Program-made: the position numbers and the translations under genes | Notes under the pieces: generated by a model | Database searches by the model: none | Told to the model about the DNA's origin: nothing | Seen by the model: only the letters and a program-made list of their open reading frames with translations | Shown: piece after piece, positions 11,792 to 43,803 of the stretch | Layout: every line of letters starts with the position of its first letter | Position numbering within the stretch: the stretch's first letter is position 1 | Assembly (NCBI GenBank): GCA_028292745.1 | Contig: JAQGLT010000056.1 | Span: 15,860 to 79,859, forward strand | DNA from: Polaromonas sp. | GTDB taxonomy: Bacteria > Pseudomonadota > Gammaproteobacteria > Burkholderiales > Burkholderiaceae_C | Direction of reading: 5' to 3' | DNA length: 64,000 nucleotides

Positions 11792-13426
11792 TCAGGTGAC
11801 AGGACCCAAGGCCTCAATGCGGTCCACATGCGCCTGCAGCGAACGCAGGGCGATGGGCCAGAGGCGCGGGTCGGTGTCGTCATAGGCCAAGGCCACCCAG
11901 TCCTGCGGCGTGCCGTCGGGCCGGGCGCGCATGGCGGCCGCCACCTTGGCCTCGCGCCTGAGGCGGTGCGCCCGGAGCTGGGCAATGGCTTGCCGGGCCG
12001 AACCCAGCACATGGCCGTGCGCCGGCAGGATGAAGTCGATGCCATGCGCCTCGCAGGCGCTGCCAAGCAGGTTTAGTGAGTCGAGGTAAGCGGTCATTTC
12101 GCCGTCGGGCGGGCTGACGATGGTGGTGCTGCCGTTGAGGATGTGGTCGCCCGAGAACAGCAGGCCGTCTTCCACCAGCACCAGGCAGACATGGTTGGCC
12201 GCATGGCCAGGGGTGAAAATAACCTTCAAAGTGTGCTTTTGCGCTTGATCAGCAAGCACAAGCAGCTCATCATTTGATAGCGGCCGGTCGGGCGTGAAAA
12301 GGGAATCGGCGCGTGCCGTGGCCGCAGACGGCAAACCCAGGATCGGCGGGCGCTGCACGCACAGCGCCTGCAGCGGGCGGGCAGCCGGTGAGTGGTCGGG
12401 ATGCGAATGGGTGCAGACAATCGCCTCGATGCGCCCGCCCGTGGCCGCGTACAGGCGCTCGATGTGCGCCGCGTCGTTCGGTCCCGGGTCAATGACGATG
12501 TAACCGCTGCCTGCCGTGCCGACGATGTAGCTGTTGGTGCCGGGGCCGGTCATGGTGCCGGGGTTGGACGCGGTCAGGCGCATGACGTTTTTCAAAAGCG
12601 GCACGGCGCTTTCGGACTGCCAGTCGAGCGAATGCACCAGCTGGCCGTCGGGGCTGGTCAGCGCCAGTTCGCCGTAGGGCGGCTCATGCTCCATGAAGCG
12701 CGCCTCCCGCCCGCCCAGCAGACCGGCGCGCGGGCACGAGGTCCAGAGCGGCTGGTCATGCCCGCAAGCCATGAGCACCGCCTCCACGCTGGCGTAATGC
12801 TGCAGCCGCTCCAGCGTGCGAAGGGTCGGGAAAATCATGAAAAAACGGCCGTCCGCATGCCGGGCCAGCGCGTCGGCGGGGCGGACCCAGCTGGGCTCGA
12901 ACTGCTCGGCTTCGTCAGCCGCCGGTGTCTGGCCCTCGGGCATGCGGGCGACCAGAAAAGGAACGTCGAAACGGCGCGGCATGTCCCGGTCGGTCACCCA
13001 GTGGGCCAGCACAAAGATGTCGGCGCCTGCCAAGGTGAGCCCTTGCGCCTGGCACTGCGGGGCAAAAGGCGCCTGCCGGTCCAGTGCGGCAATGTCCTGC
13101 GCGGTGGCAGGGCGGCCATCGGCATGGCGCGCCAGCAGCACGCCGAGTTCTTCAAAGCTCTCGCGGATGGCGGCGATGGCCTGCGTGAGGTGCAGGTCAG
13201 ACTGGCCAGGCCGGCGCGTCGATTGCCCATGGGCCGCGGCATCGGCCGCATCAATGCCGCCGCCGGGAAAAACGTAGGCGCCGGGCGCAAAGCTGGCGCT
13301 TGGGGAGCGCCGTGTCATCAGCACTTCGATGCCCTCGGCCGTGTCGCGCAGCAGCAGCACGGTGGCGGCGGGCCGGGTGGGCGCGGGTTCGCGCTGGGGA
13401 TAAAGGAGCTGGTTGGGTCTTGCCAT
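11792..13426 (-). CDS. Nudix hydrolase / metallo-beta-lactamase-fold fusion protein
   Basis: N-terminal YVFPGG..AIRESFEELG Nudix box. C-terminal GPGTNSY, THSHPDH, TPGH, GDH and PAHG. Confidence 0.88.
   Translation of the reverse strand: MARPNQLLYPQREPAPTRPAATVLLLRDTAEGIEVLMTRRSPSASFAPGAYVFPGGGIDAADAAAHGQSTRRPGQSDLHLTQAIAAIRESFEELGVLLARHADGRPATAQDIAALDRQAPFAPQCQAQGLTLAGADIFVLAHWVTDRDMPRRFDVPFLVARMPEGQTPAADEAEQFEPSWVRPADALARHADGRFFMIFPTLRTLERLQHYASVEAVLMACGHDQPLWTSCPRAGLLGGREARFMEHEPPYGELALTSPDGQLVHSLDWQSESAVPLLKNVMRLTASNPGTMTGPGTNSYIVGTAGSGYIVIDPGPNDAAHIERLYAATGGRIEAIVCTHSHPDHSPAARPLQALCVQRPPILGLPSAATARADSLFTPDRPLSNDELLVLADQAQKHTLKVIFTPGHAANHVCLVLVEDGLLFSGDHILNGSTTIVSPPDGEMTAYLDSLNLLGSACEAHGIDFILPAHGHVLGSARQAIAQLRAHRLRREAKVAAAMRARPDGTPQDWVALAYDDTDPRLWPIALRSLQAHVDRIEALGPVT
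12217..12282 (-). repeat. Double-palindrome motif copy 2 (inside Nudix-MBL gene)
   Basis: GCTAT-CAAATGA-TGAGC-TGCTT-GTGC-TTGCTGATCAA-GCGC. Confidence 0.72.
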
Positions 13427-13451
13427 GGCCTGATTTTGCAGCGAAATCGAC

Positions 13452-13513
13452 CCGCCAGCCGCCAGCCGCCAGCCGCAATGCCGCAATGCCGCAATGCCGC
13501 AATGCCGGCAATG
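13452..13513 (+). repeat. Compound short tandem repeat (CCGCCAG)3(CCGCAATG)4 plus one variant unit
   Basis: Read directly from the sequence; begins 26 bp from the Nudix-MBL start codon. Confidence 0.9.
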
Positions 13514-13726
13514 GTGATGAAACTTCGGGCGGCGTGATGCCTGAGGCCGGGAAACGCCAGTCCCACCTTGCCTGCGCCAGCGCGGGCACCGGCCTTGGCG
13601 GATGGCACTCTGTCCTGAGACGGCCCTAGCATCCCGCCTCGGGTGCTGTCAAGGCCGTTGTCGCATTGCCGCGAACGGCATGCGTCCGAAGCGCTGTAGG
13701 ACGCAGGCACCACTGATAATGCGGCC

Positions 13727-14605
13727 ATGCGAATCCGATTCACCAAAATGCACGGCGCTGGCAACGATTTCGTGGTGCTCGATGAAACCCGGGGCGCCCT
13801 GGGCCTGAGCACCGCGCAGTACCGTTTCCTGGCCGACCGCCACTTCGGCGTCGGCGCCGACCAGATTCTCACCGTGCGCCCTTCGCCGGCCGAAGGCATC
13901 GACTTTGAATATGTGATCCACAACGCGGACGGCGGCGAAGTCGAGCAGTGCGGCAATGGCGCGCGCTGCTTTATGCGCTTTGTGCGCGCGCAGGGCCTCA
14001 CCACCAAAGACGCGGTCAGGGTCCAGACCCTGGGCGGCGTGATCGAGCCGCGCCTGCAGGCCGACGGCCGCGTGACGGTGAACATGGGCGCGCCGGTGTT
14101 TGACCTGGACCGCATTCCGTTCAACGCCGACGGCTTGCTGCCGGAATCCTGCGGTTCATGGCAAAAATGGCCACTGGCGCTTGACCTGTCTGCGCAGGAT
14201 GCTCCTGTTCTGATAGCGGTCTTGTCGATGGGCAACCCGCACGCGGTGCAGCTGGTGGCCGATGTGGACACCGCGCCCGTCCTGCAGGCGGGCCCGCTGA
14301 TCGAGCGGCATGCGCGCTTTGCCCGGCGGGTGAACGCCGGCTTCATGCAGGTGGTGTCGCGCGGCCGGGTCCGGCTGCGGGTGTATGAGCGCGGCGCGGG
14401 CGAAACGCTGGCCTGCGGCACCGGCGCCTGTGCGGCGGCGGTAGCGGGCATTCGGCTCGGGCTGCTGGACAACCGGGTGGACGTGCTGACGCGCGGCGGC
14501 CAGCTGACCATCGCGTGGGCCGGCGCGCTGGATGCGCCGGTCATGATGACCGGCCCGGCCACCACCGTGTTTGAGTCCGAGATTGACATTCCCGACCTGC
14601 CGTGA
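13727..14605 (+). CDS. dapF: Diaminopimelate epimerase
   Basis: [26 protein letters not shown] and [11 protein letters not shown] motifs. Confidence 0.97.
14155..14218 (-). repeat. Double-palindrome motif copy 3 (inside dapF)
   Basis: GCTAT-CAGAACA-GGAGC-ATCCT-GCGC-AGACAGGTCAA-GCGC-CAGTGGCCATTTTTG. Confidence 0.78.
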
Positions 14606-14663
14606 CCCGGTCTGGTCGCTGCGCAACAGGTGATGACCTGCAAAAAATGGAGACTATTGCGAC

Positions 14664-15380
14664 ATGAACCCTGCCCACTATTCGATTACCGAAGACGACA
14701 TTGCCGACTTCCTGGCCAGCACGCCCGACTTCTTCGAGCGCCATGCCGAATTGCTGGCGTCGGTGCAGCTCTCCAGCGGCCATGGCACCCGCGCCATCAG
14801 CCTGCAGGAGCGCCAGGCCAGCATGCTGCGCGACAAGATCAAGGCGCTGGAGAGCCAGGTGGTCGAGATGATCCGCCACGGCCAGGACAATGCGGTGCTG
14901 GCGTGCAAGATGCAGTCCTGGACGTGCAGGCTGCTGCAGACGGCCCAGGCCCGCGACCTGCCCGATGCCATCGTGCGCGAGATCGCCAGCGAGTTCCAGA
15001 TTCCACAGGTGGCCATCAAGGTCTGGGCGGTCGATGCGGTGCATGCCGGCGAGGCGTTCGCCACCGGCGCCAGCAGCGACGTGCAGGCATTCGCCGCGTC
15101 CCTGGGCAGCCCGTACTGCGGCGTCAATGCCGGCTTCGAGGCCGCCGGCTGGCTGCCCGGTCCGGCGCAGGCGCAGTCGCTGGCGATGATTCCCCTGCGC
15201 GCCGATGCGCAGGCGCCGGTTTGCGGCCTGCTGGTGCTGGCATCGCCCGACGCGCAGCGTTTTCACAGCGGCATGGGCACTGAATTCCTGGAGCGGCTGG
15301 GTGAACTGGCCGGCGCGGCTGTCTCACGGCTTCATGCGCCGGCGGACATTGCCGCCGCCGGGGCTGAACAGGTGGCATGA
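14664..15380 (+). CDS. DUF484 family protein (YigA-like)
   Basis: PDFFERH, AISLQERQ..LR and RFHSGMGTEFL motifs. Conserved dapF-DUF484-xerC order. Confidence 0.88.
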   Translation: MNPAHYSITEDDIADFLASTPDFFERHAELLASVQLSSGHGTRAISLQERQASMLRDKIKALESQVVEMIRHGQDNAVLACKMQSWTCRLLQTAQARDLPDAIVREIASEFQIPQVAIKVWAVDAVHAGEAFATGASSDVQAFAASLGSPYCGVNAGFEAAGWLPGPAQAQSLAMIPLRADAQAPVCGLLVLASPDAQRFHSGMGTEFLERLGELAGAAVSRLHAPADIAAAGAEQVA

Positions 15381-16429
15381 CACCCGCCACGCCCGCTGAC
15401 GCGCGGTTGCCACCGGCCGGCGCCGCAACCGAGGAGGTGGACCCGCTGGTCAGGCGCTACCTGGACTACGTGCGGGTCGAAAAGCGGCTGGCCGGGCGCA
15501 CCGTCGAGCTGTACACGGCCGACCTGCGCAAGCTGCAGGCGCATGCGCGCCAGGCCGGCGTGGTGCTGACCCAAGTCCAGCACATCCACCTGCGGCGCTG
15601 GGTGGCGCAGATGCACTCCAGCGGGCGCAGCGGCCGGGGCATCGCGCTGATCCTGTCGGGCTGGCGCGGGTTTTACGCCTGGCTGGGCCGCGAAGGCCTG
15701 GTGCCGGGCAATCCGGTGCAGGATGTGCGCTCGCCCAAGGTGGCCAAGCCGCTGCCCAAGGCCCTGAGCGTCGACGAAGCCGTGCAACTGGCCGCTTTCC
15801 AGGCCGATGCGGGGTGCGGCGCCGATCCCTTTCTGGAAGCGCGCGACCAGTGCATCACCGAGCTGCTCTACGGCTGCGGCCTGCGCATTGGCGAGCTGGT
15901 CGGCCTGGATGTGCAGGCCAGCGGCCAGGCGCGCGGCTGGATCGACCTGGCCGGGGGTGAGGCCCATGTGCTTGGCAAGGGCGAAAAGCGGCGCAGCGTG
16001 CCCGTCGGCAGCGCGGCCCTGCAGTCGCTGCGCAAGTGGCTGGCGGTGCGCGGCAGCTGGGCGCGGCCCGGCGTCGAACTGGGCGAGGCGCTGTTCGTCA
16101 ACCAGCGCGGCAGCCGGCTCACGCCGCAGCACATCCGCGTGCGGCTCAAGCAGCGTTCGCAGCAGGCCGGGCTGGCAACCCCGGTGCATCCGCACATGCT
16201 GCGCCATTCCTTCGCCAGCCATGTGCTGCAGTCCAGCGGCGACCTGCGGGCGGTGCAGGAACTGCTGGGCCATGCCAACATCACGACCACCCAGGTGTAC
16301 ACCCGGCTCGATTTCCAGCACCTGGCCAAGATCTACGACGCCGCCCATCCCCGGGCGATTTCGGACGGGGCGGGCTCGAAAGCCAAACCGGCGCCGGCCA
16401 GGCTGCCGCCGAAAACGCCTGCCAAGTAG
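15377..16429 (+). CDS. xerC: Tyrosine recombinase XerC
   Basis: YGCGLRIGEL, GKGEKRR, HPHMLRHSFASH and LGHANITTTQVYT; housekeeping synteny. Confidence 0.92.
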   Translation: MTPATPADARLPPAGAATEEVDPLVRRYLDYVRVEKRLAGRTVELYTADLRKLQAHARQAGVVLTQVQHIHLRRWVAQMHSSGRSGRGIALILSGWRGFYAWLGREGLVPGNPVQDVRSPKVAKPLPKALSVDEAVQLAAFQADAGCGADPFLEARDQCITELLYGCGLRIGELVGLDVQASGQARGWIDLAGGEAHVLGKGEKRRSVPVGSAALQSLRKWLAVRGSWARPGVELGEALFVNQRGSRLTPQHIRVRLKQRSQQAGLATPVHPHMLRHSFASHVLQSSGDLRAVQELLGHANITTTQVYTRLDFQHLAKIYDAAHPRAISDGAGSKAKPAPARLPPKTPAK

Positions 16430-16501
16430 GCCGCTTGGCTGGGCTGGGACGGTTGCCGCGCGCCATGCCCTCTGCAACCCACAGCCGCGACAATAGCGGC
16501 C

Positions 16502-17734
16502 ATGAAAATCATTCGACTCAAAGACGGCAGGGAACGCTCCTTGCTGCGCCGCCACCCGTGGGTTTTTGATGGCGCCGTCGCCAGTGGCGGCGGTGACGCC
16601 GGCGAAACCGTGCGTATCGAAAGCCACGCCGGCCAGTTCCTGGGCTGGGCCGCCTTCAGCCCCAGTTCCAAAATCCGCGCACGGGTCTGGAGCTTTGCCG
16701 AGGCCCAGCCCATAGACGCTTCTTTTTTCATAGCGCGTATCGCAGACGCCATAAGCGCTAGAGGCCGATTTGATATAAAAAGCGATGGTTTGCGCCTGAT
16801 CCACGGCGAATCCGACGGCTTGCCCGGCCTGGTGGTGGACCGTTACGGCGACACGCTGGTCGCGCAGTTCTCCAGTTGCGGAAGCGAAAAATGGAAGCAG
16901 GTGATCGTTCAGGCACTGCTGGCGCAAACCGGCCTGACGCGCCTGTACGAGCGCTCGGACGCCAGCGTCAGGGCGCTTGAAGGCCTGCCCGAAGCCACCG
17001 GCTGGCTGGCCCATCCAGGCCTTGAATCTGGCCTGCAAGCACCGGGCGCGCCGTTTCCGGACGACACCGGCATCACTATCACCGAGCACGACTGGAAGCT
17101 GAGCCTGGACATTGCCGAGGGCCACAAAACCGGCTTCTACCTCGACCAGCGCGACAGCCGCCTGAAGTTTGCCGCCTATGCGCGCCGGCTGCAGTTCCAG
17201 GACGTGCTCAACTGCTACTGCTACACCGGCGGCTTCACCGTGGCCGCGCTGGCGGGCGGCGCGGCGCATGTCACCTCCATCGATTCATCCGGCCCGGCGA
17301 TCGAGCGGGCAAAGGCCAACGTGGCCCTGAACGGCTTTGACGCCGGCCGCACCACCATGCGCGACGCCGATGTCAACGCCTCGCTGCGCGAGTACCTCAA
17401 GGAAGGCCGGATGTTTGACGCCATCGTGCTCGATCCGCCGAAATTCGCGCCCACGGTAACCCATGCCGAGCAGGCCGCCCGTGCCTACAAGGACATCAAC
17501 CGGCTGGCGCTGTCGATTCTGGCGCCCGGCGGCGTGCTGTTCACTTACTCCTGCTCGGGCGGCATCAGCGCCGACCTGTTCCACAAGATCGTGGCGTCGG
17601 CCGGCACTGATGCCGGCGTGGACGCCTTTATTTCCGAGCGCATGGGCGGCGCGGCCGATCACCCGATGACGGTGGCGTTTCCCGAAGGCGAGTATCTCAA
17701 GGGGCTGGTGCTGGTCAAGCGCCCGGCGAACTGA
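16502..17734 (+). CDS. rlmI: Class I SAM-dependent rRNA methyltransferase (RlmI-like)
   Basis: PUA-like RHPWVF, ESDGLPG, GHKTGFYLDQRD, LDPPKF and EGEYLKG motifs. Confidence 0.85.
   Translation: MKIIRLKDGRERSLLRRHPWVFDGAVASGGGDAGETVRIESHAGQFLGWAAFSPSSKIRARVWSFAEAQPIDASFFIARIADAISARGRFDIKSDGLRLIHGESDGLPGLVVDRYGDTLVAQFSSCGSEKWKQVIVQALLAQTGLTRLYERSDASVRALEGLPEATGWLAHPGLESGLQAPGAPFPDDTGITITEHDWKLSLDIAEGHKTGFYLDQRDSRLKFAAYARRLQFQDVLNCYCYTGGFTVAALAGGAAHVTSIDSSGPAIERAKANVALNGFDAGRTTMRDADVNASLREYLKEGRMFDAIVLDPPKFAPTVTHAEQAARAYKDINRLALSILAPGGVLFTYSCSGGISADLFHKIVASAGTDAGVDAFISERMGGAADHPMTVAFPEGEYLKGLVLVKRPAN
16717..16781 (+). repeat. Double-palindrome motif copy 4 (inside rlmI)
   Basis: GCTTC-TTTTTTC-ATAGC-GCGTA-TCGC-AGACGCCATAA-GCGC-TAGAGGCCGATTTGATATAAAA. 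Confidence 0.78.
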
Positions 17735-17800
17735 AAATAGTGGTCAAATCGGCCTCTGGCGCATGTGGTGTATGTGTTAATTGCTATTAAAATCATAGCA
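17735..17800 (-). repeat. Double-palindrome motif copy 5 (immediately after the rlmI stop)
   Basis: GCTAT-GATTTTA-ATAGC-AATTA-ACAC-ATACACCACAT-GCGC-CAGAGGCCGATTTGA. Confidence 0.8.
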
Positions 17801-17856
17801 AATTTCCTGCGCTGCGGTCACGGCCTTGGCGGGCATGGGCCGGTCTGCCTCGGGGT

Positions 17857-17884
17857 CTTGAAGGCGCCGATAAACTTCCCAGTT
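17857..17884 (+). promoter_or_regulatory. Possible sigma32-type promoter for the cobW-like gene
   Basis: CTTGAA-N14-TCCCAGTT resembles the RpoH consensus. Confidence 0.35.
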
Positions 17885-17949
17885 CGGATCCTTGACCTTG
17901 CGCACCGTGCATTTTGTATTTTGTCGTTTCCGTTTTTTAGGTAAACACC

Positions 17950-19014
17950 ATGAGCTTGATTCCTGTCACCATCCTCACCGGCTTTCTGGGCTCGGGCAAG
18001 ACCACGCTGCTCAAGCGCATTCTGACCGAGGCCCACGGCCAGAAGATCGCCGTCATCGAAAACGAATTCGGCGAGGAAAACATCGACAACGAGATCCTCG
18101 TCAACGACACCCAGGAAAACATCATCCAGATGAACAACGGCTGCATCTGCTGCTCGATTCGCGAAGACCTGCGCGAAACCTTGCAACTGCTGGCTGCCAA
18201 GAAGCGCACGGGCGTGCTGGACTTCGAGCGCGTGGTGATCGAAACCACCGGCCTGGCCGACCCCGGCCCGGTGGCGCAGACCTTTTTCATGGACGAGGAA
18301 ATCGCCGAGCAGTACCTGCTTGACTCCATCCTGACGCTGGTCGATGCCAAGCATGCGCCGCAGCAGCTCAACGACCGCCAGGAGGCGCGCCGGCAAGTGG
18401 GCTTCGCCGACCAGATCTTCATCAGCAAGTCCGACCTGGTGGCCGAAAACGAAGTGCAGGCGCTGATGCACCGCCTGGCGCACATGAATCCGCGCGCACC
18501 GCAAAAAGCCGTGCATTTCGGCGAGGTGGCGATTGCCGATGTGTTCGACCTGCGCGGCTTCAACCTCAATGCCAAGCTCGACATCGACCCGGATTTCCTC
18601 AAGGAGGACGGCCATGAGGCGCATGAGCACCATGACCATGCGCACGGCGAGCATTGCGACCATCCGTCCCATGCGGCCCAAGGCGACGCGCAGGGCGGCC
18701 ACCATCATCACCATGACGACGATGTCAAAAGCTTTGTGTTCCGCTCCGACAAGCCGTTCAGCCCGGCCAAGCTCGAAGACTTCCTGGGTGCCGTGGTCAA
18801 CATCTATGGCCCGCGCCTGTTGCGCTACAAGGGCGTGCTGAACATGGAAGGCACTGATCGCAAGGTGATTTTCCAGGGGGTGCATCAACTCATGGGCAGC
18901 GACCTCGGGCCCGTGTGGGCGCAGGGCGAGACGAAAACCAGCAAGATGGTCTTTATCGGCATTGATCTGCCCAAAGATATCTTCATGCAAGGCCTGGAGC
19001 AGTGCCTGGTGTGA
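17950..19014 (+). CDS. COG0523 / CobW-YjiA family metal-chaperone GTPase
   Basis: GFLGSGKTT, NEFGE, GCICC, ETTGLADP, a His-rich linker and a CobW_C domain. Confidence 0.93.
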   Translation: MSLIPVTILTGFLGSGKTTLLKRILTEAHGQKIAVIENEFGEENIDNEILVNDTQENIIQMNNGCICCSIREDLRETLQLLAAKKRTGVLDFERVVIETTGLADPGPVAQTFFMDEEIAEQYLLDSILTLVDAKHAPQQLNDRQEARRQVGFADQIFISKSDLVAENEVQALMHRLAHMNPRAPQKAVHFGEVAIADVFDLRGFNLNAKLDIDPDFLKEDGHEAHEHHDHAHGEHCDHPSHAAQGDAQGGHHHHHDDDVKSFVFRSDKPFSPAKLEDFLGAVVNIYGPRLLRYKGVLNMEGTDRKVIFQGVHQLMGSDLGPVWAQGETKTSKMVFIGIDLPKDIFMQGLEQCLV

Positions 19015-20141: not shown

Positions 20142-20180
20142 TCCTTCTGTCATCCCTGTGTAATTGATTGATTGACCACC

Positions 20181-21971: not shown

Positions 21972-22047
21972 TTCGCGTGTCCCCCTTCTTGTTATGAGAT
22001 TGAGGGAATGGCATAAGCGGCACACTCAAGCATTTTTCATGCTGATT

Positions 22048-22931: not shown

Positions 22932-22966
22932 GTGGGAAAATGTGCAAATTGGTGGTGAAAAGTGTT
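22932..22966 (+). promoter_or_regulatory. MraZ-binding direct repeats (dcw operator)
   Basis: GTGGG, GTGCA, GTGGT and GTGTT at an exact 10-bp period just upstream of mraZ. Confidence 0.7.
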
Positions 22967-32008: not shown

Positions 32009-33258
32009 CTGCCAGAATGCGCATGCCTGGGTGGTTGTCAGGCTCTGGCAAAGTTGTGGCCGATGCGCTTCCGGTTCGTCTTGGGGGTCGCAGCCTGCCC
32101 GGCAAGATGTCAACGCCGGTGCGTATGGCCGGCCTTGACTGGACGTTGTTCTGGGTGACAGTGGCATTGTTGATCGCCGGAATGATCATGGTGTATTCCG
32201 CTACGGTGGCAATGCCTGACAATCCAAAGTTTGCACGGTATGCCCACACCTATTTCCTGACGAGGCATGTCTTCTCATTGGGAATCGCATCCTTTGTTGC
32301 GTTCCTGGCATTTCAAATACCCATGGCGACCTGGGAAAAATACGCACCCTGGCTGTTCGTCGGCTCGCTGGTGTTGCTGATCCTGGTGCTGGTTCCCTTC
32401 ATCGGCAAGGGCGTCAACGGCGCGCGGCGCTGGATTCCCTTGGGTTTCATGAATTTTCAGCCTTCGGAACTGGCGAAATTCGCGGTGCTTCTGTATGCGT
32501 CCGATTACATGGTGCGCAAGATGGAAGTCAAGGAGCGCTTCTTTCGCGCGGTGCTGCCCATGGCATTCGCCGTCGGGATTGTGGGCGTACTGCTGCTGGC
32601 AGAGCCGGACATGGGGGCCTTCATGGTGATTTCAGTCATCGCCATGGGCATTCTCTTTTTGGGTGGCGTCAATGCCCGCATGTTCTTTCTGATTGCCGCC
32701 GTGGTGGTGGTGGCTTTCGGCATGATGGTGATGTTCAGCGAATGGCGGCGGGAGCGGATTTTTGCCTATATGGACCCCTGGAACGAAAAATATTCGATGG
32801 GCAAGGGCTATCAGCTGTCGCATTCCCTGATTGCTTTTGGCCGAGGGGAGATTTTCGGTGTTGGCCTGGGCGGCAGCATCGAAAAGCTTCACTGGCTTCC
32901 AGAAGCGCACACTGACTTTTTGATGGCCGTGATTGGCGAAGAATTTGGCCTGGTCGGCGTGCTGGTGATCATTGGCCTGTTCCTGTGGATGATCCGCCGC
33001 ATCATGCACATTGGCCGCCAGTCGATTGCGCTGGACCGGCTGTTTGCCGGGCTGGTTGCCCAGGGCGTCGGTATCTGGATGGGTTTTCAGACCTTCATCA
33101 ACATTGGCGTGAACCTGGGAGCACTGCCCACCAAAGGCCTGACGCTTCCTTTGATGAGCTATGGCGGCTCGGCGATTGTGATGAACCTGATTGCCCTGGC
33201 CGTCGTGATCCGCATTGATTATGAAAACCGGGTACTCATGCGCGGAGGCCGCGCATGA
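32005..33258 (+). CDS. ftsW: SEDS glycosyltransferase FtsW
   Basis: [21 protein letters not shown] and [13 protein letters not shown]; dcw position. Confidence 0.96.
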
Positions 33259-33349
33259 GTACCCGTGTTTCGCCAAAACCGGGCAGCGCGGCGCGCTGCG
33301 GCGCACCAGCGCTGCTCATGCGCGGAGGCCGCGCATGAGTCGGCAGCGC
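33229..33349. repeat. Duplicated hairpin at the ftsW-murG junction, containing a 27-codon mini-ORF (33255-33338)
   Basis: CTCATGCGCGGAGGCCGCGCATGAGT occurs twice, 80 bp apart. The first copy lies in a perfect 17-bp stem. Confidence 0.85.
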
Positions 33350-34417
33350 TGCGCACTGGTCATGGCAGGCGGGACCGGGGGGCATATTTTCCCCGGACTG
33401 GCGGTGGCCGAAGCCCTGCGCGAGCGCGGCTGGCGCGTTCACTGGCTGGGCGGGCGCGGCGCTGCAGGCCATCCCAGCATGGAAAGCCAGTTGGTGCCGC
33501 CCCGCGGTTTTGCGTTTGAGAGCATTGACTTCTCAGGGGTGCGCGGCAAGGGCCCAATCACCCTGGCGATGCTGCCGCTGCGACTGCTCAAGGCATTCTG
33601 GCAAAGCATCCAGGTGCTGCGGCGCGTGCAGCCCGACGTGGTGCTGGGCCTAGGGGGCTACATCAGTTTTCCTGCCGGAATGATGAGCGTGCTGCTGGGG
33701 AAACCACTGATTTTGCATGAGCAGAATTCGGTGGCGGGCATGGTCAACAAGCTGCTGGCCAGCGTGGCAGACCGTGTTTTTACCGCCTTCCCCAATGTGC
33801 TTAAAAAAGCCGAGTGGGTGGGCAATCCGCTTCGGCCAGCTTTTACCCGGCAGTTGGAGCCGGCGGCTCGCTTTGCCACCCGGCGCGGGCCGCTTAACGT
33901 GCTCGTGGTTGGCGGCAGCCTGGGTGCTGCGGCCTTGAATGAGCTGGTGCCCAAAGCCTTGGCCTTGATTCCGGCAGCCGTGCGTCCACGCGTTACTCAC
34001 CAAAGCGGAACCCGCCAGATTGACGAGTTGCGTGCCAACTACCAAGCCGCTGGCGTGCAGGCAGAACTCACGCCATTTATCGAAGACACCGCCCAGGCTT
34101 TCGCCGAAGCTGACCTCATCATTTGCCGCGCAGGCGCCAGCACGGTGACAGAAATCGCCGCCGTTGGTGCGGCAGCCGTGTTTGTTCCCTTTCCTGCGGC
34201 CGTAGATGACCACCAGACCGCCAATGCGAAATTTCTTGTTACGCATGGAGGGGGCTGGTTGATGCCACAGAGTGACCTAACACCCGAAAAACTTGCCATA
34301 ATGCTACAAAAAACAGAGCGTCTTGCGCTTGTCCAGTCTGCGCTACAAGCTAAAACCATGCAAAAAATTGATGCCACTGCCCGTCTCGTTGCCGCCTGCG
34401 AGGAACTTACGCGATGA
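33335..34417 (+). CDS. murG: MurG glycosyltransferase
   Basis: [23 protein letters not shown] and DDHQTANA motifs. Confidence 0.96.
34302..34366 (+). repeat. Double-palindrome motif copy 6 (inside murG)
   Basis: GCTAC-AAAAAAC-AGAGC-GTCTT-GCGC-TTGTCCAGTCT-GCGC-TACAAGC. Confidence 0.75.
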
Positions 34418-36824: not shown

Positions 36825-37624
36825 GCCGCGCCATGCCCCATCCAATCACCTTGCCGCGCGACGTCAGGCTCATGAACACCCTGTCGGTGCTTCTGGGCTT
36901 GGTGTTTGTCGCCATGGTGCTGGCGATGGGCGTGGCCTGGCTGGTACGGCAACCGGCATTCAACCTGACGGCCATCCGGGTGGGCGGGGATTTGATGCAC
37001 AACAACGCCGTCACCTTGCGCGCCAATGTGGCGCCCAAGCTGGCGGGCAATTTCATGACGGTGGATTTGGAAGTCACCCGCGCCGCTTTTGAGGCTGTTC
37101 CCTGGGTTCGCCGCGCGGTGGTGCAGCGTGAATTTCCGAACCGCCTCAGGGTGCTGCTGCATGAGCACAAGGCGGTTGCCTACTGGGGGTCCGAGGGCGA
37201 CGCCCGGCTGGTGAGCAACGCCGGCGAGGTGTTCGATGCCAATCCGGGCGATGTGGAGGCCGAGGAATTGCCGCTGCTCGACGGCCCCAAGGGCCAGGCG
37301 CCGCTGGTACTGCAGACCTACCTCGGCCTGGCGCCGCTGTTTGAAGAAATGGATGCGGTGCTGGAGCAGCTGCAGTTGACCCAGCAAGGCAGCTGGCGTG
37401 TGCAACTCGACAGTGGGGCGGTGATCGAACTGGGCCATGGTTCGCTGGCTGAAGTGCAAAAGCGCACGCGGCGGTTTATCGACACGGTGACGCAGGTGGC
37501 GTCCCGGTTTGGACGGGATGTGGAGTCTGCCGACTTGCGCTATGCCAGCGGCTATGCGCTCAAGCTCAGGGGCGTCACGACGGGCGAGATCGGCGACAAA
37601 GTCGACCAAAAAAAGAAAAGGTAA
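36821..37624 (+). CDS. ftsQ: Cell division protein FtsQ
   Basis: TM plus POTRA domain (PWV..REFPN), DLRY; dcw position. Confidence 0.92.
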
Positions 37625-37629
37625 ATCAA

Positions 37630-38859
37630 GTGGCCAAAGAATACAAGGATCTCGTGGTTGGGCTGGATATTGGAACCAGCAAAATCATGGTCGTGGTCGC
37701 CGAGGTCATGCCCGGAGGCGAACTCAAGCTGGCAGGCCTGGGGATCGCGGCAAGCAACGGGCTCAAGCGCGGCGTGGTGGTCAATATCGATGCCACCGTG
37801 CACAGCATCCAGCAGGCGCTCAAGGAGGCCGAGCTGATGGCTGACTGCAAGATTGGCCGCGTCTTCACCGGCATCACCGGCAGCCATATCCGGGGCATCA
37901 ATTCGAGCGGCATGGTGGCGGTCAAGGACAAGGAAGTCAGCCAGGCCGATGTGACCCGGGTGATTGAAACCGCGAAGGCCATCAACATTTCCACCGACCA
38001 GCGCCTGCTGCTGGTCGAACCGCAGGAATTCGTGATCGATGGCCAGGATGTGCGCGAGCCGATTGGCATGAGCGGCCTGCGCCTGGAGGCCAAGGTGCAT
38101 ATCGTGACCGGCGCCCAAAGCGCTGCCGAAAACATCATCAAATGCGTGCGGCGCTGCGGCCTGGAGGTCGACCAGCTGATGCTCAATCCGCTGGCGTCCA
38201 GCCTGTCGGTGCTGACGCAGGATGAGCAGGAACTGGGCGTGGCGATGGTCGATATTGGCGCCGGCACCACCGACGTGGCGATCTTTACCGGCGGCGCCAT
38301 CCGGCACACCGCGGTGATCCCGATTGCCGGCGACCTGATCACCAGCGACATCGCCATGGCGCTTCGCACGCCGACCAAGGACGCGGAAGACATCAAGGTC
38401 GAAAACGGCTGTGCCAAGCAGCTGCTGGCCGACCCGGACACGCAGGTGGAAGTGCCAGGCCTGGGCGACCGTGGCCCGCGCATGCTCAGCAAGCAGGCCC
38501 TGGCCGGCGTGATCGAGCCGCGTGTCGAGGAAATTTACCTGCTGGTCCAGCAAGTGATTCGTGAGTCCGGGTATGAAGAGGTGCTGTCCTCGGGCATCGT
38601 CATCACGGGCGGCAGCGCCATGATGCCCGGCATGATCGAGCTGGGCGAAGACATATTCCTCAAGCCGGTACGGCGCGGCCTGCCGCGCTATTCCAGCGCG
38701 CTGTCCGACATGGTGGCCCAGACCCGGGCGGCCACGGTGATGGGCTTGCTCGAAGAATCCCGGCAGGCCCGTATCCGCGGCTTCAAGGTGGCGCAAAAGG
38801 CCGGCAGCGTGCACAGCGCTTTTGGCCGTGTCAAAGACTGGTTTGTAGGCAATTTCTGA
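37630..38859 (+). CDS. ftsA: Cell division protein FtsA
   Basis: GLDIGTSK, DIGAGTT and the C-terminal amphipathic VKDWFVGNF. Confidence 0.97.
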   Translation: MAKEYKDLVVGLDIGTSKIMVVVAEVMPGGELKLAGLGIAASNGLKRGVVVNIDATVHSIQQALKEAELMADCKIGRVFTGITGSHIRGINSSGMVAVKDKEVSQADVTRVIETAKAINISTDQRLLLVEPQEFVIDGQDVREPIGMSGLRLEAKVHIVTGAQSAAENIIKCVRRCGLEVDQLMLNPLASSLSVLTQDEQELGVAMVDIGAGTTDVAIFTGGAIRHTAVIPIAGDLITSDIAMALRTPTKDAEDIKVENGCAKQLLADPDTQVEVPGLGDRGPRMLSKQALAGVIEPRVEEIYLLVQQVIRESGYEEVLSSGIVITGGSAMMPGMIELGEDIFLKPVRRGLPRYSSALSDMVAQTRAATVMGLLEESRQARIRGFKVAQKAGSVHSAFGRVKDWFVGNF

Positions 38860-39007
38860 TGAACAGAATGTCCAGCTCCATCGGTCGCCACTGGGGCCGA
38901 GTCCATTCCGGAGGAGCCGATCCACCGGCCTGACGAGCCATGTCTCGTACAAATTTTGAAATTTTTACCGTTTTCCCCAACCCGATTTACTGAACAGGAG
39001 GCTCCCA

Positions 39008-40186
39008 ATGAGTATCGAAATGATTGAAATCCAAGAATTCAACCAAGGCACGCAGATCAAGGTGATCGGCGTCGGTGGCGGTGGCGGCAATGCCGTCGGC
39101 CACATGATCCACTGCGGTGTGCAGGGGGTTGAATTCATTTGCGCCAACACCGATGCGCAGGCCCTGAACCGTGGCACCGCGCACAAGAACATCCAGCTGG
39201 GCGCCAGCGGCCTGGGTGCCGGCAGCAAGCCTGAAAAAGGCCGCGAAGCGGCTGAACTGGCGATCGACGATATCCGCAGCGCCATCAGCGGCGCGCACAT
39301 GCTCTTCATCACGGCAGGCATGGGCGGCGGCACCGGAACCGGCGCCGCCCCGGTGATTGCGCGCGTGGCCAAGGAAATGGGCATCTTGACCGTCGGCGTC
39401 GTGACCAAGCCATTCGACTTCGAAGGCGGCCGCCGCATGACCAATGCGGACCAGGGCTTGTGCGAACTGGAGGCCAATGTCGATTCGCTGATCGTGGTGC
39501 TCAACGAAAAGCTGCTTGAGGTGCTGGGCGACGACGTGACCCAGGACGAGGCTTTCGCCCATGCCAACGACGTGCTGAAAAACGCCGTCGGCGGTATTGC
39601 CGAAATCATCAATGTGCCTGGCCATGTGAATGTCGACTTTGAAGACGTGCGCACCGTGATGGGCGAGCCCGGCAAGGCCATGATGGGCACGGCCCGGGCC
39701 AACGGGCCGGACCGTGCCCGCATTGCCGCCGAGCAGGCCGTGGCGTGCCCGTTGCTCGAAGGCATCGACCTGTCGGGCGCCAAGGGTGTGCTGGTGCTGA
39801 TTTCGGCTGCCAAGGGTTCGCTCAAGCTGAACGAGTCCAAGCTGGCGATGAACACCGTCCGCGCCTACGCATCGCCTGATGCGCATGTGATTTACGGCAC
39901 GGCCTACGACGACGAACTGGGCGATGACATCCGCGTCACCGTGGTGGCGACCGGCCTGAGCCGCCAGGAGTCGCGTCGCAACGTCGCGCCGCTGCAGGTG
40001 CTTCGCACGGGCCAGAACGCGGCTGCCGGCGCACAAGGCCTGAAGCAGCCCGATTATGGCAACATGGCCGTGCCCAGCGTGTGGCGCACCAACCGCACCC
40101 AGGCGGCAGCGAAGGTCGATGCGCTGGCATCGGGCGGTATGGATGACTTTGAAATCCCGGCCTTCCTTCGCCGCCAGGCCGACTGA
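39008..40186 (+). CDS. ftsZ: Cell division protein FtsZ
   Basis: GVGGGGGNA, GMGGGTGTG, NVDFED and the C-terminal EIPAFLRRQAD. Confidence 0.98.
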   Translation: MSIEMIEIQEFNQGTQIKVIGVGGGGGNAVGHMIHCGVQGVEFICANTDAQALNRGTAHKNIQLGASGLGAGSKPEKGREAAELAIDDIRSAISGAHMLFITAGMGGGTGTGAAPVIARVAKEMGILTVGVVTKPFDFEGGRRMTNADQGLCELEANVDSLIVVLNEKLLEVLGDDVTQDEAFAHANDVLKNAVGGIAEIINVPGHVNVDFEDVRTVMGEPGKAMMGTARANGPDRARIAAEQAVACPLLEGIDLSGAKGVLVLISAAKGSLKLNESKLAMNTVRAYASPDAHVIYGTAYDDELGDDIRVTVVATGLSRQESRRNVAPLQVLRTGQNAAAGAQGLKQPDYGNMAVPSVWRTNRTQAAAKVDALASGGMDDFEIPAFLRRQAD

Positions 40187-40203
40187 GGCCCTGCCGCCAG
40201 GTT

Positions 40204-40231
40204 GCCCCGGCCTGTGAATGCAGGCCGGGGC
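40204..40231 (+). terminator. GC-rich hairpin after ftsZ (stabiliser or possible terminator)
   Basis: GCCCCGGCCTG-TGAATG-CAGGCCGGGGC; there is no T-tract. Confidence 0.45.
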
Positions 40232-40335
40232 GCGGGTTCCAAATCAAAGCGCTGTTCTCGCTATGAGGCGAGCCTGTTCCATGGGCATTGGCTGCGGGTG
40301 GGTTGCCCTGAACGCTGCACAAATTAAAATACCCC

Positions 40336-41259
40336 ATGCTCGCTCAAAGAACACTCAAATCCCTCACCCGTGCGGTCGGCGTCGGGTTGCACAGCGGCCA
40401 GCGGGTCGAGCTGACCTTGCGGCCGGCGCCGCCCGGCACCGGCATCGTGTTTCGGCGGGTCGATTTGCCCCAGCCGGTCGACATCGTCATCTCGCCCGAG
40501 GCGGTCACCGATACCCGCCTGGCTTCCACCATTTCCAGCGGCAGTGCCAAGGTGCATACCGTCGAGCATTTGATGTCCGCCTGCGCCGGTCTGGGGATTG
40601 ACAACCTGATCATCGACATCACCGCCGAAGAGGTGCCGATTCTGGATGGCTCGGCTTCGTCCTTCGTTTTCTTGCTGCAGTCCGCCGGGATTGAACTGCA
40701 GGCGGCGCCCAAGCGCTTTGTCCGCATCCTCAAGCCGGTGGAGGTGCGAGAAGGCGAGGGCGCCAATGTGAAATGGGCACGCCTGAGTCCCTACGAAGGC
40801 TACAAGCTCAGTTTTGAAATCGACTTTGATCACCCCGCGGTCGACTCCACCGGCCAGCGCGTGGAGTTCGACATGGGCTCGGGAGCCTACAGCCGGGACA
40901 TTGCCCGCGCCCGCACCTTCGGCTTTACCAAGGATGTGGAAATGATGCGGGCCAACGGCCTGGCGCTCGGCGGCGGACTGGACAACGCCATTGTGATGGA
41001 CGACTACAAGGTGCTCAACAGCGAAGGCCTGCGCTACAACGATGAATTCGTCAAGCACAAGATCCTTGACGCCATGGGCGACCTGTACCTCTTGGGCAAG
41101 CCGCTGCTGGCAGCCTACAGCGCGTTTCGCTCCGGCCATGCGATGAACAACAAGCTGCTGCGCGAGTTGCTGGCGCATCCGCAGGCTTATGAGGTGGTGA
41201 CATTCGACGACGAGAAAAACGCACCGCAAGGCTTTGCCACGCTGGCGCGGGCCTGGTAG
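40336..41259 (+). CDS. lpxC: UDP-3-O-acyl-GlcNAc deacetylase
   Basis: GVGLHSG, TVEH, DGSA, ARTFGF and HKILD motifs. Confidence 0.97.
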
Positions 41260-41295
41260 CACGGTTCCCTGGCGTTACAAACAGGAGTTCACCCG

Positions 41296-41472
41296 ATGCT
41301 GCTTTTTCGCTGGATGCTGTTGCTCGCGCTGCTGGCTGCGCTGGTGTGTTTCATCTTTTATGCCGGCACCGGGCAGGTGCGCTTCCGGCACTATGGCTGG
41401 ATTGTCCTGAAGTGGGCGCTGATCGCTGCCTTCGGATTTTTCGGGGTGTTGATTCTGGAGCGGGTGGGGTAG
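41296..41472 (+). CDS. Small two-TM membrane protein (58 aa; not in the ORF track)
   Basis: ACAGGAG RBS. Reads MLLFRWMLLLALLAALVCFIFYAGTGQVRFRHYGWIVLKWALIAAFGFFGVLILERVG. Confidence 0.75.
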   Translation: MLLFRWMLLLALLAALVCFIFYAGTGQVRFRHYGWIVLKWALIAAFGFFGVLILERVG

Positions 41473-41497
41473 GCAGGCACCACCGGCCGGTCATTCC

Positions 41498-42046
41498 TCA
41501 GCGGCTTCGGCCTGCCCGGTAATTGCCGCCCACTTTTTTGTTTCCCTCGCTGGCCAGCGCCAGCCGCGCCATGGCGCTGCCCACATGCGCGTGGGTGATC
41601 GCCAGGCCCAGCGCGTCGGCGGCATCCTTGCCCGGCAGCGAAGGCAGCTTCAGCAGCCGCATCACCATCTGCTGCACCTCGGCCTTGCCTGCCTTGCCAT
41701 AGCCCGCCACGGCTTTTTTCATCTGCAGCGCGGTGTACTCGGCCACCGCCAGGTCGGTCGATACCAGCGCGGTGATGCAGGCGCCGCGTGCCTGGCCCAG
41801 CAGCAGGGTCGCCTGCGGATTGACATTGACGAAAACGATTTCCACCGACGCGACCTCGGGCTGGTAGCGCTGCACGACTTCGCGCACGCCGTCGAACAGC
41901 ACCTTCAGGCGCCCGGGCAGGTCGCGCAGGTCCAGATGCGTGGTCTTGATGGTGCCGCTGGCCACGTAGCGCAGGTGCGGCCCGTCCATGTCGACCACGC
42001 CGAAGCCCGTGGTCTGCAGGCCCGGATCAATTCCCAGTATATGCAT
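41498..42046 (-). CDS. ruvC: Holliday junction resolvase
   Basis: [13 protein letters not shown] and DAADALG motifs. Confidence 0.96.
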
Positions 42047-42047
42047 T

Positions 42048-42113
42048 TGCTATTAATTTAGTAGCTGACTGCGCATGTGCAGTCTGCGCCAGGGCACGAA
42101 ACGGCATATAAAA
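42048..42113 (+). repeat. Double-palindrome motif copy 7 (abuts the ruvC start codon)
   Basis: GCTAT-TAATTTA-GTAGC-TGACT-GCGC-ATGTGCAGTCT-GCGC-CAGGGC. Confidence 0.8.
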
Positions 42114-42190
42114 GCGGCATAGGCGCGCGCGTTGCCTGGCATGCCGTGCCGTGCCGAAACCGGCTTTCCTGCGTCTGTTGCGCACCGCGT

Positions 42191-42946
42191 TCACGGAAGC
42201 TCCACGCCGCTCATGCGGGCCGTGATGGTGCGGGCACGCGAGGCCAGGTAGCCGGAATGGATGCGAGTTTCAAAATACTTGGGCCGTGGCAGCATGACGG
42301 CCAGCCGGGCGGCCTCAACAGCGCTCAGCCGGGAAGCGGGCTTGTGGAAATAGTGCCGGGCGGCGGCCTCCGCGCCGAAAACCCCTTCGCCCCATTCGAC
42401 GCTGTTGAGGTAGATCTCAAGGATGCGCTGCTTGTCCAGCAAGGCTTCAAGCATAAGCGTCAGCAGCAGCTCCTGGCCTTTGCGCAGCAGCGTCCGCTCG
42501 CCCGACAAGAACAGGTTTTTGGCCAGCTGCTGGGTGATGGTGGAGCCGCCGATGATCCTGGGCGGCTTGGCGGCAAGGGGTGTTTTTGACTTGCTTTCAG
42601 CGGCCGGCCGGCTGGTGGCCTGGGCCGCGCGCTCCTCGGCTTTGGCATTTTTTTCCCAGGCTTTTTCCAGCGCTTCCATGTCCACGCCGTCATGGACGAT
42701 GAAACTGGCGTCTTCCGAGGCAATGATGGCGCGCTTGAGATGGTCGGACACCTGCGCGTAAGGCACCCACTGCTGGCGCCAGGCAAGCGTGCCGGTGTTT
42801 TTCAAGACCAGGTAGGCTTCGGAGCGCTGAAAGGCGGTGGATTCGGGGTTGACGACGCGCATCAAGGCAATGCGCGCCGCAAAATAAAGCTGCAATGCCA
42901 AAAGAGCCAGCAGCACCAGGCCCAGCAGGCGCCCCAGGGCTTTCAT
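42191..42946 (-). CDS. mtgA: Monofunctional peptidoglycan transglycosylase
   Basis: IASED..F..HDG, GGSTITQQLAKNL, RKGQE and YLNSVEWG motifs. Confidence 0.94.
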   Translation of the reverse strand: MKALGRLLGLVLLALLALQLYFAARIALMRVVNPESTAFQRSEAYLVLKNTGTLAWRQQWVPYAQVSDHLKRAIIASEDASFIVHDGVDMEALEKAWEKNAKAEERAAQATSRPAAESKSKTPLAAKPPRIIGGSTITQQLAKNLFLSGERTLLRKGQELLLTLMLEALLDKQRILEIYLNSVEWGEGVFGAEAAARHYFHKPASRLSAVEAARLAVMLPRPKYFETRIHSGYLASRARTITARMSGVELP

Positions 42947-43803
42947 GCTGGCTGCGCCCGCAGTTCCCGCAGCACCTGTGCGGCGGGGGGGCGCACGCCG
43001 CGCCACAGGGCAAACGCTTCGGCCGCCTGCTCGACCAGCATGCCCAGCCCGTCACGCGGGCTGGCGCCGTGCGCGCGCGCCCAGGCCATGAAACCCTCGG
43101 CCGCCGGTCCGTACATCATGTCGTAGGCCAGGGCGCCGGGCTTCAGGTGCCGGTGGTCCACCGGCGGCGGGCCGCCCGACAGGCTGCTTGCGCTGGCATT
43201 GACGATGACATCGAAATCACCTTCCAGCGCAGACAGGTCCTGCGCCAGCAGCTCTGTTTTTTGTAGCGCCTGGCGCAAGAAGGCGTGCGCGCGGTGCCGC
43301 GCGACCAGTGCCTCGGCCTTGGCCTGCGTGCGGTTCACCACCACCAGCCTGCGCGGCCCGGCTGCCACCAGTGGCGCCAGCGCACCGGCTGCGGCGCCGC
43401 CCGCGCCTATCAGCAGCACATCGCGCCCGGCCAGCGACACGCCGGCGTTGTTCTGGATGTCGTTGACCAGCCCCAGGCCGTCGGTGTTGTCGGCATAGAC
43501 CGCGCCCTTTTCAAACACCAGCGTGTTGGCCGCCTGCGCCAGCTGGGCGCGGGCGCTTTGCCGGGCGGCGGCCTCGAACGCCTGGAACTTGAACGGCACG
43601 GTCACGTTGCACCCGCAGGCGCCATCCCGGATCAGCTGCGCCAGCGTGGCGGCAAAGCCGTCAAGCGGTGTGAGCCGCCGCTGGTAATCGATGGCCTGTC
43701 CGGTGAGCTCGGCAAAACGCGCATGAATCTGGGGCGACTTGCTGTGGGCAATCGGGTTGCCGAGTACGAAATAGGGGTCGGGTGTCGTGCGTTCGCTGGC
43801 CAT
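42943..43803 (-). CDS. aroE: Shikimate dehydrogenase
   Basis: GNPIAHSKSP, NVTVPFK, DNTDG, GAGGAA and GLGMLVEQA. The start could instead be 43821. Confidence 0.93.
   Translation of the reverse strand: MASERTTPDPYFVLGNPIAHSKSPQIHARFAELTGQAIDYQRRLTPLDGFAATLAQLIRDGACGCNVTVPFKFQAFEAAARQSARAQLAQAANTLVFEKGAVYADNTDGLGLVNDIQNNAGVSLAGRDVLLIGAGGAAAGALAPLVAAGPRRLVVVNRTQAKAEALVARHRAHAFLRQALQKTELLAQDLSALEGDFDVIVNASASSLSGGPPPVDHRHLKPGALAYDMMYGPAAEGFMAWARAHGASPRDGLGMLVEQAAEAFALWRGVRPPAAQVLRELRAQPA
43204..43268 (-). repeat. Double-palindrome motif copy 8 (inside aroE)
   Basis: GCTAC-AAAAAAC-AGAGC-TGCTG-GCGC-AGGACCTGTCT-GCGC-TGGAAGGTGATTT. Confidence 0.75.

Follow-up and report, generated by a model that had tools for sequence, protein, structure and literature searches.

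A dispersed 66-bp motif in Polaromonas and other Comamonadaceae, apparently written over the codons of housekeeping genes

DNA uptake sequences have been described from two families, as the DUS of Neisseriaceae and the uptake signal sequences (USS) of Pasteurellaceae (PMC3630211, Frye et al. 2013; PMC2817400, Findlay & Redfield 2009). Other dispersed repeats differ in build: HIP1, the highly iterated palindrome of cyanobacteria, is a simple 8-bp palindrome (PMC5861425), and the Betaproteobacterial repeat element (BRE; Hot et al. 2011, PMC3110155) is 75-91 bp long, about 69% G+C, often tandem and present in at most 29 copies per genome. A survey by Tong & Mrazek (2017; PMC5217627) reported the spaced motifs ATAGCT(N)22CAAAAG in Polaromonas naphthalenivorans CJ2 and GCTTAT(N)5AAGCG in Acidovorax ebreus TPSY, in 125 and 114 copies, mostly intergenic near gene ends and often between convergent genes, with 18 and 5 copies in genes; it lists both as 'potential novel motifs' only, and gives no full-length element, species comparison, treatment of insertion versus overprinting, dialects or function. 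Here we analyze a motif of about 66 nt that recurs in a 64,000-nt stretch of DNA from Polaromonas sp. (assembly GCA_028292745.1, contig JAQGLT010000056.1, positions 15,860 to 79,859, forward strand; hereafter the window, whose own numbering we use), where it lies within six housekeeping genes, and we follow it through the rest of the genome and through related genomes.

G000, the source genome, was assembled from a metagenome; its 154 contigs total 3.78 Mb, with 61.7% G+C and 88% completeness. A profile built from its own copies of the motif and searched with nhmmer gave 608 matches at E<1e-3, whereas the reversed genome that served as control yielded none and a best score of 17.8 bits. The consensus opens with a head palindrome, GCTAYT-N6-ATAGC, followed by TGCTTGCGCA, a variable spacer, TGCGCTAGAGGCC and a tail, TTTGA...AAAA; by blocks, the order after the head is TGCGCA, about 9 nt of variable spacer, a second block plus YRGAGGCC, and the tail, and conserved positions extend over about 66 bp. 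ATAGCT occupies consensus positions 16-21 and CTAGAG positions 44-49, a fixed geometry of ATAGCT-N22-CTAGAG in G000. Copies average 0.456 G+C and are largely solitary, only 16 neighboring pairs lying less than 200 nt apart. Their orientation is balanced by strand (297:281) and relative to GC skew (80:98), and these counts in G000 give no replication-strand bias of the KOPS or Chi kind. Copies between genes are found chiefly next to gene 3' ends: convergent pairs enclose 34 of them, divergent pairs 1. When one genome per species was searched for the exact pattern, the motif turned up in Acidovorax, Simplicispira, Ottowia, Rhodoferax, Giesbergeria, Polaromonas, Comamonas and Hydrogenophaga; with records in eight genera, it therefore belongs to the family Comamonadaceae as a whole.

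The window holds ten copies: six in genes, two between genes and two on gene boundaries. The six had been singled out in a sequence-only reading of this DNA as lying wholly within open frames on either strand. All were located, at 24.9-38.5 bits, four in sense and two antisense to their gene; Pfam agrees with every host gene that had been named (DUF3025, NUDIX plus metallo-beta-lactamase, DAP epimerase, RlmI-type methyltransferase, MurG and shikimate dehydrogenase), and all six quoted peptides had been read correctly. The range then given, 12217-43268, takes in five of them and leaves out the DUF3025 copy (4481..4544, minus strand; 34.6 bits, E 3.9e-8 in nhmmer), which runs antisense through the gene at 3945-4769 (plus) and encodes YPRKHITAHVYQAQPAINSIA. 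The Nudix/metallo-beta-lactamase (Nudix-MBL) gene at 11792-13486 (minus) carries a sense copy at 12224..12282 (minus; 24.9 bits) encoding PLSNDELLVLADQAQKHTL, and dapF (13727-14605, plus) an antisense copy at 14155..14218 (minus; 26.6 bits). In rlmI (16502-17734, plus) a sense copy at 16716..16781 (plus; 38.5 bits) encodes ASFFIARIADAISARGRFDIK. The murG copy (34298..34353, plus; 29.6 bits) is in sense and falls in the C-terminal helix of the open reading frame (ORF) at 33215-34417 (plus); that of aroE (43214..43268, minus; 33.4 bits), also in sense, encodes ALQKTELLAQDLSALEG within the ORF at 42943-44061 (minus), the conserved part of which runs from about 43800. The longest aroE and murG ORFs begin about 85-95 and 35-45 codons upstream of where all orthologs align, and the true starts probably lie downstream of these longest-ORF starts.

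All six in-gene copies align to the profile from model positions 4-8 to 57-72 with no internal gaps, and a repeat finder joins the murG, aroE, dapF and rlmI stretches with the intergenic stretch after rlmI. The observation that murG and aroE encode LQKTE from identical DNA holds exactly: the 17-mer GCTACAAAAAACAGAGC occurs twice in the window, in murG (plus) and aroE (minus), where none is expected. Might the six nevertheless be AT-rich, Ala- and Leu-coding patches that resemble the repeat by chance or composition? In-gene copies are weaker (median 37.6 against 45.3 bits), and ancestral helices such as that of PurK are Ala/Leu-rich and partly motif-like to begin with. Chance is barely credible all the same and is refuted by the controls, since the reversed genome tops out at 17.8 bits, far short of any of the six, since the shared 17-mer has no expected matches, and since chance cannot produce the dialect tracking and cross-genus retention of rare codons described below.

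Was the motif inserted into these genes, or written over codons that were already there? Each gene was aligned codon by codon with orthologs from 24 same-genus genomes and 16 genomes from other families of the order. For rlmI and murG, little or no length gain had been anticipated, and each gains 0 aa. RlmI aligns gap-free with 27 orthologs, five from other families among them; its motif segment DASFFIARIADAISARGRFDIK pairs residue for residue with IDxxFFxxRIxxA...R of distant orthologs, and ancestral residues such as FF..RI are retained within the copy. The C-terminal helix of MurG is gap-free against 27 orthologs, and most congeners retain its string GCTACAAAAAACAGAGCG. DUF3025 also gains 0 aa, with no gap against 23 same-genus orthologs, other-family orthologs being longer here. 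Both dapF and Nudix-MBL equal their motif-free congeners in length and exceed other families by 4 aa, differences that fall in variable loops; in dapF the GGCC block of the motif overlies an ancestral W-P-L, and in a few congeners the Nudix-MBL loop holds a fuller motif copy and is 11 to 13 aa longer. Alignment across the order places the aroE motif within a variable loop as well. Among 29 other genera of the family, sampled at one genome each, five carry the motif at the same aroE site, and the segment measures 105 nt in 17 of the 23 that are clearly motif-free, the remainder being one shorter and five longer through loop insertions of their own. Compared with other genera, AroE of G000 also carries 4 additional residues, FLRQ, immediately ahead of the motif.

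Four further copies, among the highest-scoring in-gene copies elsewhere in G000 (47.8-54.9 bits), lie in genes for a PF10023 aminopeptidase and an ECH_2 hydrolase, in hemD and in purK. ECH_2 and purK gain 0 aa and the aminopeptidase is 4 aa longer than other-family orthologs, while hemD is the only tested copy with partly extra sequence, in a loop of species-variable length. In purK, an ancestral ...ALAAQAR...LAA... helix has become motif largely via synonymous changes against codon bias (GCC to GCT, ACC to ACT, ATT to ATA). The likeness to the motif is graded among relatives: the rlmI site of congeners scores anywhere from 0 to 45 bits, the dapF site reaches 36 bits, and orthologous in-gene sites match the profile in most of one large same-genus clade. 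(The species tree, built from six proteins, is in-genus and midpoint-rooted; a tree with other-family outgroups set them on the branch of congener G005, an artefact of partial data, and the in-genus tree was used instead.) With a clean unit insertion at none of the ten in-gene copies tested, and no clean insertion of about 21 aa in any of the six of the window relative to orthologs inside or outside the group, the alignments support the earlier proposal that in-gene copies are overprints of existing codons and not inserted units.

The obvious alternative is a miniature mobile element, either an in-frame miniature inverted-repeat transposable element (MITE) or something like the Rickettsia palindromic elements, which are reportedly insertions adding tens of residues, that landed in these genes and was later trimmed by deletions. 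Intergenic sites are indeed about 65 nt longer with the motif than without it, some species have additional residues in the Nudix-MBL and hemD loops, and a longer composite repeat of about 200 nt is built around some 60-70 of the copies; this repeat is fairly uniform and may be mobile or have a function of its own. Even so, trimming would have to account for zero change in length in rlmI, murG, DUF3025, ECH_2 and purK relative to motif-free orthologs, for an aroE segment equal to that of 17 of 23 motif-free genera, and for ancestral residues (FF..RI in rlmI) kept inside the copies; it is implausible that deletions compensated exactly at so many loci, neither target-site duplications nor terminal repeats were seen, and the one RAYT-like transposase, taken up below, is not flanked by the motif. 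We consider a trimmed insertion improbable, and the alignments have already largely refuted it. Examples of the composite repeat are at G000:C98:5590-5623, C98:7712-7745, C74:24231-24264, C88:3579-3612 and C91:50163-50196; its upstream part reads ...AGAGCGGCTTCACCCTGGCTGGCAACAGCGAAGCCGGGCAGCC..., often starting right at a stop codon, and its downstream part ...TTTTCCTGGCTTTCCCCGGTATTTCTCCTTCCCCCGCTGGGGGAAGG.

Overprinting extends well beyond the window. By a six-frame codon-usage score, at least 82 of 577 copies in G000 (14%) lie well inside genes and 130 more touch a gene end, counts that are approximate, as the score misses copies near gene ends such as that of murG. A classification by G+C content at third codon positions (GC3) alone was tried and replaced by this score; it had miscalled as coding the intergenic copy between the UPF0227 gene and rodA (47598..47665, minus; 44.2 bits), because that copy lies in an over-extended ORF in which Pfam finds UPF0227 only at aa 534-719. 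Of the intragenic copies 52 are antisense and 30 sense, and 66 of the 82 fall in two of the six frames, those in which the consensus has no stop codon. Where TAG would stand in frame, ATAGC becomes AGAGC or ATGAGC, and it is through this avoidance that murG and aroE have LQKTE in common.

Codon usage indicates that the copies, once present, are held at the level of DNA. The six had been described as local AT-rich patches with codons rare in these genes, and so they are: GC3 is 0.48-0.61 within them and 0.71-0.79 in the remainder of each gene, and the motif brings in codons that are very rare in G000 (CTA 0.07%, ATA 0.09%, AGA 0.06% and ACA 0.19% of codons). A check of synonymous-site conservation, proposed along with that description, gave a divided answer. 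Where G000 has an A/T-ending codon and a relative has the same amino acid, the codon matches exactly 55% of the time within the motif and 39% of the time beyond it. Five of the six genes agree in direction, but the p-values exaggerate the effect, since related genomes are not independent samples; the raw measure, to which we return, is raised in only one gene. Most motif-bearing congeners retain the aroE string CTA CAA AAA ACA GAG, as do several other genera at only 64-71% protein identity, and the codons flanking it vary freely.

Lineages that have lost the motif give the complementary picture. One nested congener, G007, is nearly motif-free, with 25 head palindromes against 368-468 in relatives; its in-gene sites read CTG CAA AGC ACC GAG and similar, the same protein in preferred GC-ending codons, and all six window loci score 0 there. 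A separate clade (G001, G002, G010, G013 and G020) has likewise lost the motif or nearly so. In these lineages, G007 included, about 94 kb of orthologous DNA gave 0 profile matches, and head palindromes, of which relatives have 220-468, number 5 in G001 and 25 in G007. Since other genera carry the motif, its absence or near absence in the G001-G013 clade and in G007 looks like secondary loss.

The second block of the motif comes in lineage-specific versions, or dialects, and in-gene copies follow the dialect of their genome. In G000 the block reads GCGC, with 124 pattern matches against 3 for GGGC and 97% agreement in the profile columns, whereas twelve congeners have 11-132 GGGC-type matches and 0-2 of the GCGC type. 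The in-gene copies of G000 read GCGC at six of six window loci and ten of ten loci tested (the Nudix-MBL block was read from the codon alignment, the block table being misaligned there by loop indels), and among strictly intragenic copies 72 of 82 read GCGC and 1 GGGC. By inspection of the alignments, GGGC stands at eight of ten loci in G006 and GGAC at four of five in G021. The last case served as a prediction: the G021 copies in aroE, dapF, DUF3025 and ECH_2 read GGAC, and so did 10 of 13 oriented copies in about 140 kb of that genome sampled afterwards. The profile derived from G000 finds 0 matches in 22 kb of G021, yet the genome has 368 head palindromes; the profile thus under-detects other dialects, and profile scores in relatives are lower bounds. 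Across genera the head is conserved and particular positions of the tail switch. G011 shows a further dialect, with the first GC block often GCCCCCG and the second CGGGGGCTGGAG, both half-sites having changed together, and its in-gene copies of murG and Nudix-MBL also read CGGGGGCT.

These switches reach into proteins. They are synonymous wherever the codon allows, as in dapF and DUF3025 (Ala, GCC versus GCG), and alter the protein elsewhere. At the aroE site congeners have Gly (GGG or GGA) and G000 has Ala (GCG), and in G021 the conserved ITAHVY of DUF3025 has become ITVHVY and an Ala of dapF has become Val. Together with the retention of rare codons, these amino-acid changes bear out the idea that selection or drive on the DNA reshapes protein sequence. 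The same base change at many unlinked orthologous sites cannot be neutral drift; a change of dialect throughout a genome is either a shift in the specificity of a reader, tracked by all sites, or homogenization by conversion.

Taken together, we lean towards the motif being a double-stranded DNA recognition signal that is read in trans and kept by drive or selection. The six stretches would then be old, position-conserved copies of a genome-wide motif of fixed geometry, overprinted on existing codons through synonymous changes and such non-synonymous ones as were tolerated, in stop-free frames and for the most part at variable or already Ala/Leu-rich places in the protein, and afterwards held against codon bias. 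Pressure of this kind would rest on the sequence itself and act alike at hundreds of unlinked sites, which would be why the second block changes in step throughout the genome, in-gene copies included. The simplest cause would be a trans-acting reader of double-stranded DNA, whose existence we infer and whose specificity would drift between lineages; upkeep could come from a transmission advantage, as for DNA uptake sequences in transformable bacteria, or from selection for binding. Only tentatively would we go on to a narrower version, in which the motif is a 66-bp 'self' recognition signal read by a protein or machine of Comamonadaceae acting in trans, and most specifically a third and by far the longest class of uptake signal. 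When specificity shifted, even between close species, every copy would be rewritten, those in essential genes included, overriding codon bias and occasionally conserved residues.

Several observations weigh against a trans-read signal of this kind. About 65-85% of copies are intergenic, a bias far stronger than that of USS, and intergenic copies add length where they are present, by the roughly 65 nt already mentioned; the possibly mobile composite repeat around some copies is a further point. With its five blocks over about 66 bp, it exceeds every known uptake signal in length several-fold, the core of DUS and USS being 10-12 bp and about 30 bp with flanks, and it is because of these mismatches in length and intergenic bias that we file the motif as working like an uptake signal and not as a member of the class. 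ComEC and DprA are present but so nearly universal as to be uninformative; both also occur in non-transformable bacteria. Searches of the literature on uptake sequences or natural competence in Comamonadaceae turned up nothing usable and no paper connecting uptake sequences with the family. In five of the six genes, raw synonymous codon identity is no higher inside the motif than elsewhere in the gene, and only aroE shows a rise; the measure is made uninformative by strong codon bias, which alone puts the background at about 0.5-0.57, and the excess appears only under the restriction to A/T-ending codons. Related genomes are not independent, the assembly is an 88%-complete metagenome, and the species tree stands on six proteins. 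Finally, some dialect changes come in short clusters (CAAGGG to TCTGCG in aroE), as short-patch gene conversion from other copies would produce.

The last point leads to the main rival, concerted evolution by gene conversion alone, in which abundant intergenic donors repeatedly convert partly similar genic stretches and the repeat is selfish, with neither reader nor function. Homogeneous dialects within each genome and clustered changes such as TCTGCG versus CAAGGG are what it predicts; moreover, the rlmI copy has an exact stretch of 20-23 nt in common with several other copies, at which sister genomes differ, and in-gene copies decay in the genome that lost the motif family. It fits less well with in-gene copies that keep gene-specific codons and a vertically inherited spacer between the conserved motif positions, with the shortness of identical tracts between copies, and with a head palindrome conserved across genera while only certain positions switch, a constraint by position and not the drift of whole tracts. 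Nor does conversion explain how length-neutral copies arose in unrelated genes in the first place. We regard it as unlikely to be the whole account, and continue with the reading of a double-stranded signal recognized in trans.

A signal read as double-stranded DNA, and not as RNA or a cruciform, also fits the behavior of the palindromes. The alternative is an element that acts as a structured RNA or as a hairpin of single-stranded DNA (a terminator, a determinant of mRNA stability, or a REP recognized by a RAYT transposase), some copies being tolerated in genes. It would suit the two palindromic blocks, the concentration of intergenic copies next to gene 3' ends (34 convergent versus 1 divergent) and the presence of one RAYT-like gene. 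Across 632 copies, however, neither palindrome shows covariation, the Watson-Crick frequency at every pair being that expected from column composition; folding is no more stable than for shuffled sequence (z-scores -1.5 to +0.3); the motif has no Rfam match even at E<=1; and in-gene copies run in both orientations. These results and the balanced orientation overall fit double-stranded reading, and a hairpin seems to us quite improbable. The RAYT-like gene, a single-copy Y1 (IS200/IS605-type) transposase at G000:C69:4270-4569 (NF047646, 73.7 bits, cut-off 80), was rejected as a partner, with a score under the family cut-off and the nearest motif copy about 2.6 kb away. The transposase locus is L331:1141-1848 (minus; G000:C69, about 3910-4617), and an unrelated inverted repeat, GGGGTCAGATTCCAATTAAAT...ATTTAAATTGGGGAC, lies downstream of it at about L331:1036-1090.

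The remaining copies of the window give context to the intergenic majority. One lies directly 3' of the rlmI stop codon (17735..17803, minus; 47.4 bits); congeners that have the motif there show a spacer of 52-111 nt, against 10-21 nt or a gene overlap in those that lack it, and as the motif is present at that spacer in most of the genus, the copy is old. Another (42045..42098, plus; 43.3 bits) adjoins the start of ruvC, RuvC being encoded at 41498-42046 on the minus strand. A third (60691..60748, minus; 27.4 bits) overlies the 3' end of a PfkB-family kinase gene (59803-60705, plus). This copy is also just upstream of a gene for an HC2 histone H1-like nucleoprotein (Pfam PF07382; 60999-61802, minus), built of degenerate internal repeats of 15 nt and about 100 nt and encoding a Lys/Ala-rich product. 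At the ftsW/murG junction (33219-33338) the GC-rich palindrome CTCATGCGCGGAGGCCGCGCATGAG stands in two copies separated by 80 nt, and a weaker third copy lies at 50548-50587; it is a second, REP-like repeat family, distinct from the 66-bp motif. The only Rfam family in the window is the bacterial class A RNase P RNA (RF00010, 190 bits) at 9503-9840 (plus).

Why does this matter? Among DNA signals spread through whole genomes, only the short uptake sequences of two bacterial families and a few short palindromes, HIP1 among them, are known to overprint genes without changing their length. In this large and environmentally dominant family a far longer motif of several blocks does likewise, and its species-level dialects change amino acids in MurG, AroE, DapF, RlmI and DUF3025 proteins. 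The motif thereby bears on how strongly a drive or a need for binding at the DNA level can override codon bias and protein constraint. If the reader model is true, the dialects predict reader residues that co-vary with them, and the motif-loss lineages (the G001-G013 clade and G007) predict loss of the reader, which makes these lineages natural controls for finding it. On the practical side, motif patches can mislead analyses of codon usage, selection (dN/dS) and horizontal transfer in Comamonadaceae, and the dialects could serve as lineage markers.

How, then, does the motif compare with the systems already described? It is best read as behaving like DNA uptake sequences. Like DUS and USS, it is present in hundreds of copies in both orientations with no replication-strand bias; its coding copies are length-neutral, prefer certain frames and fall on weakly conserved residues; its dialects are lineage-specific and uniform within a genome; and it alters the peptide content of the proteome. 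Of the two analogies offered in the sequence-only reading this one fits, and that with Rickettsia palindromic elements, being insertions, does not. Those elements resemble the motif as dispersed repeats that lie in frame in housekeeping genes, are translated and are tolerated in surface or variable parts of proteins, but none of the ten in-gene copies tested here is a unit insertion and five add nothing. REP and REPIN sequences, said to be extragenic hairpins tied to a flanking RAYT gene, are likewise short palindrome-bearing repeats in hundreds of copies, mostly extragenic near gene 3' ends, long-lived and vertically inherited; the motif differs in its lack of stem covariation, in a RAYT-like gene that it does not flank, and in having at least 14% of its copies inside genes. 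With HIP1 (PMC5861425) it has in common hyper-abundance, spread through coding regions, selection and no assigned reader or function, although it is about 66 bp long, asymmetric and multi-block. BRE, too, is a repeat of Comamonadaceae (and of Bordetella), usually intergenic with some copies entirely within coding sequences (PMC3110155), whereas the motif is 46% G+C, single and present in about 600 copies; BRE is probably a different, GC-rich tandem repeat, set apart by its description without a consensus to compare. The motifs of Tong & Mrazek, finally, are in part the same element, ATAGCT followed by 22 nt and a 6-mer being exactly the geometry found here. Parts of the motif were thus already known from the 2017 survey.

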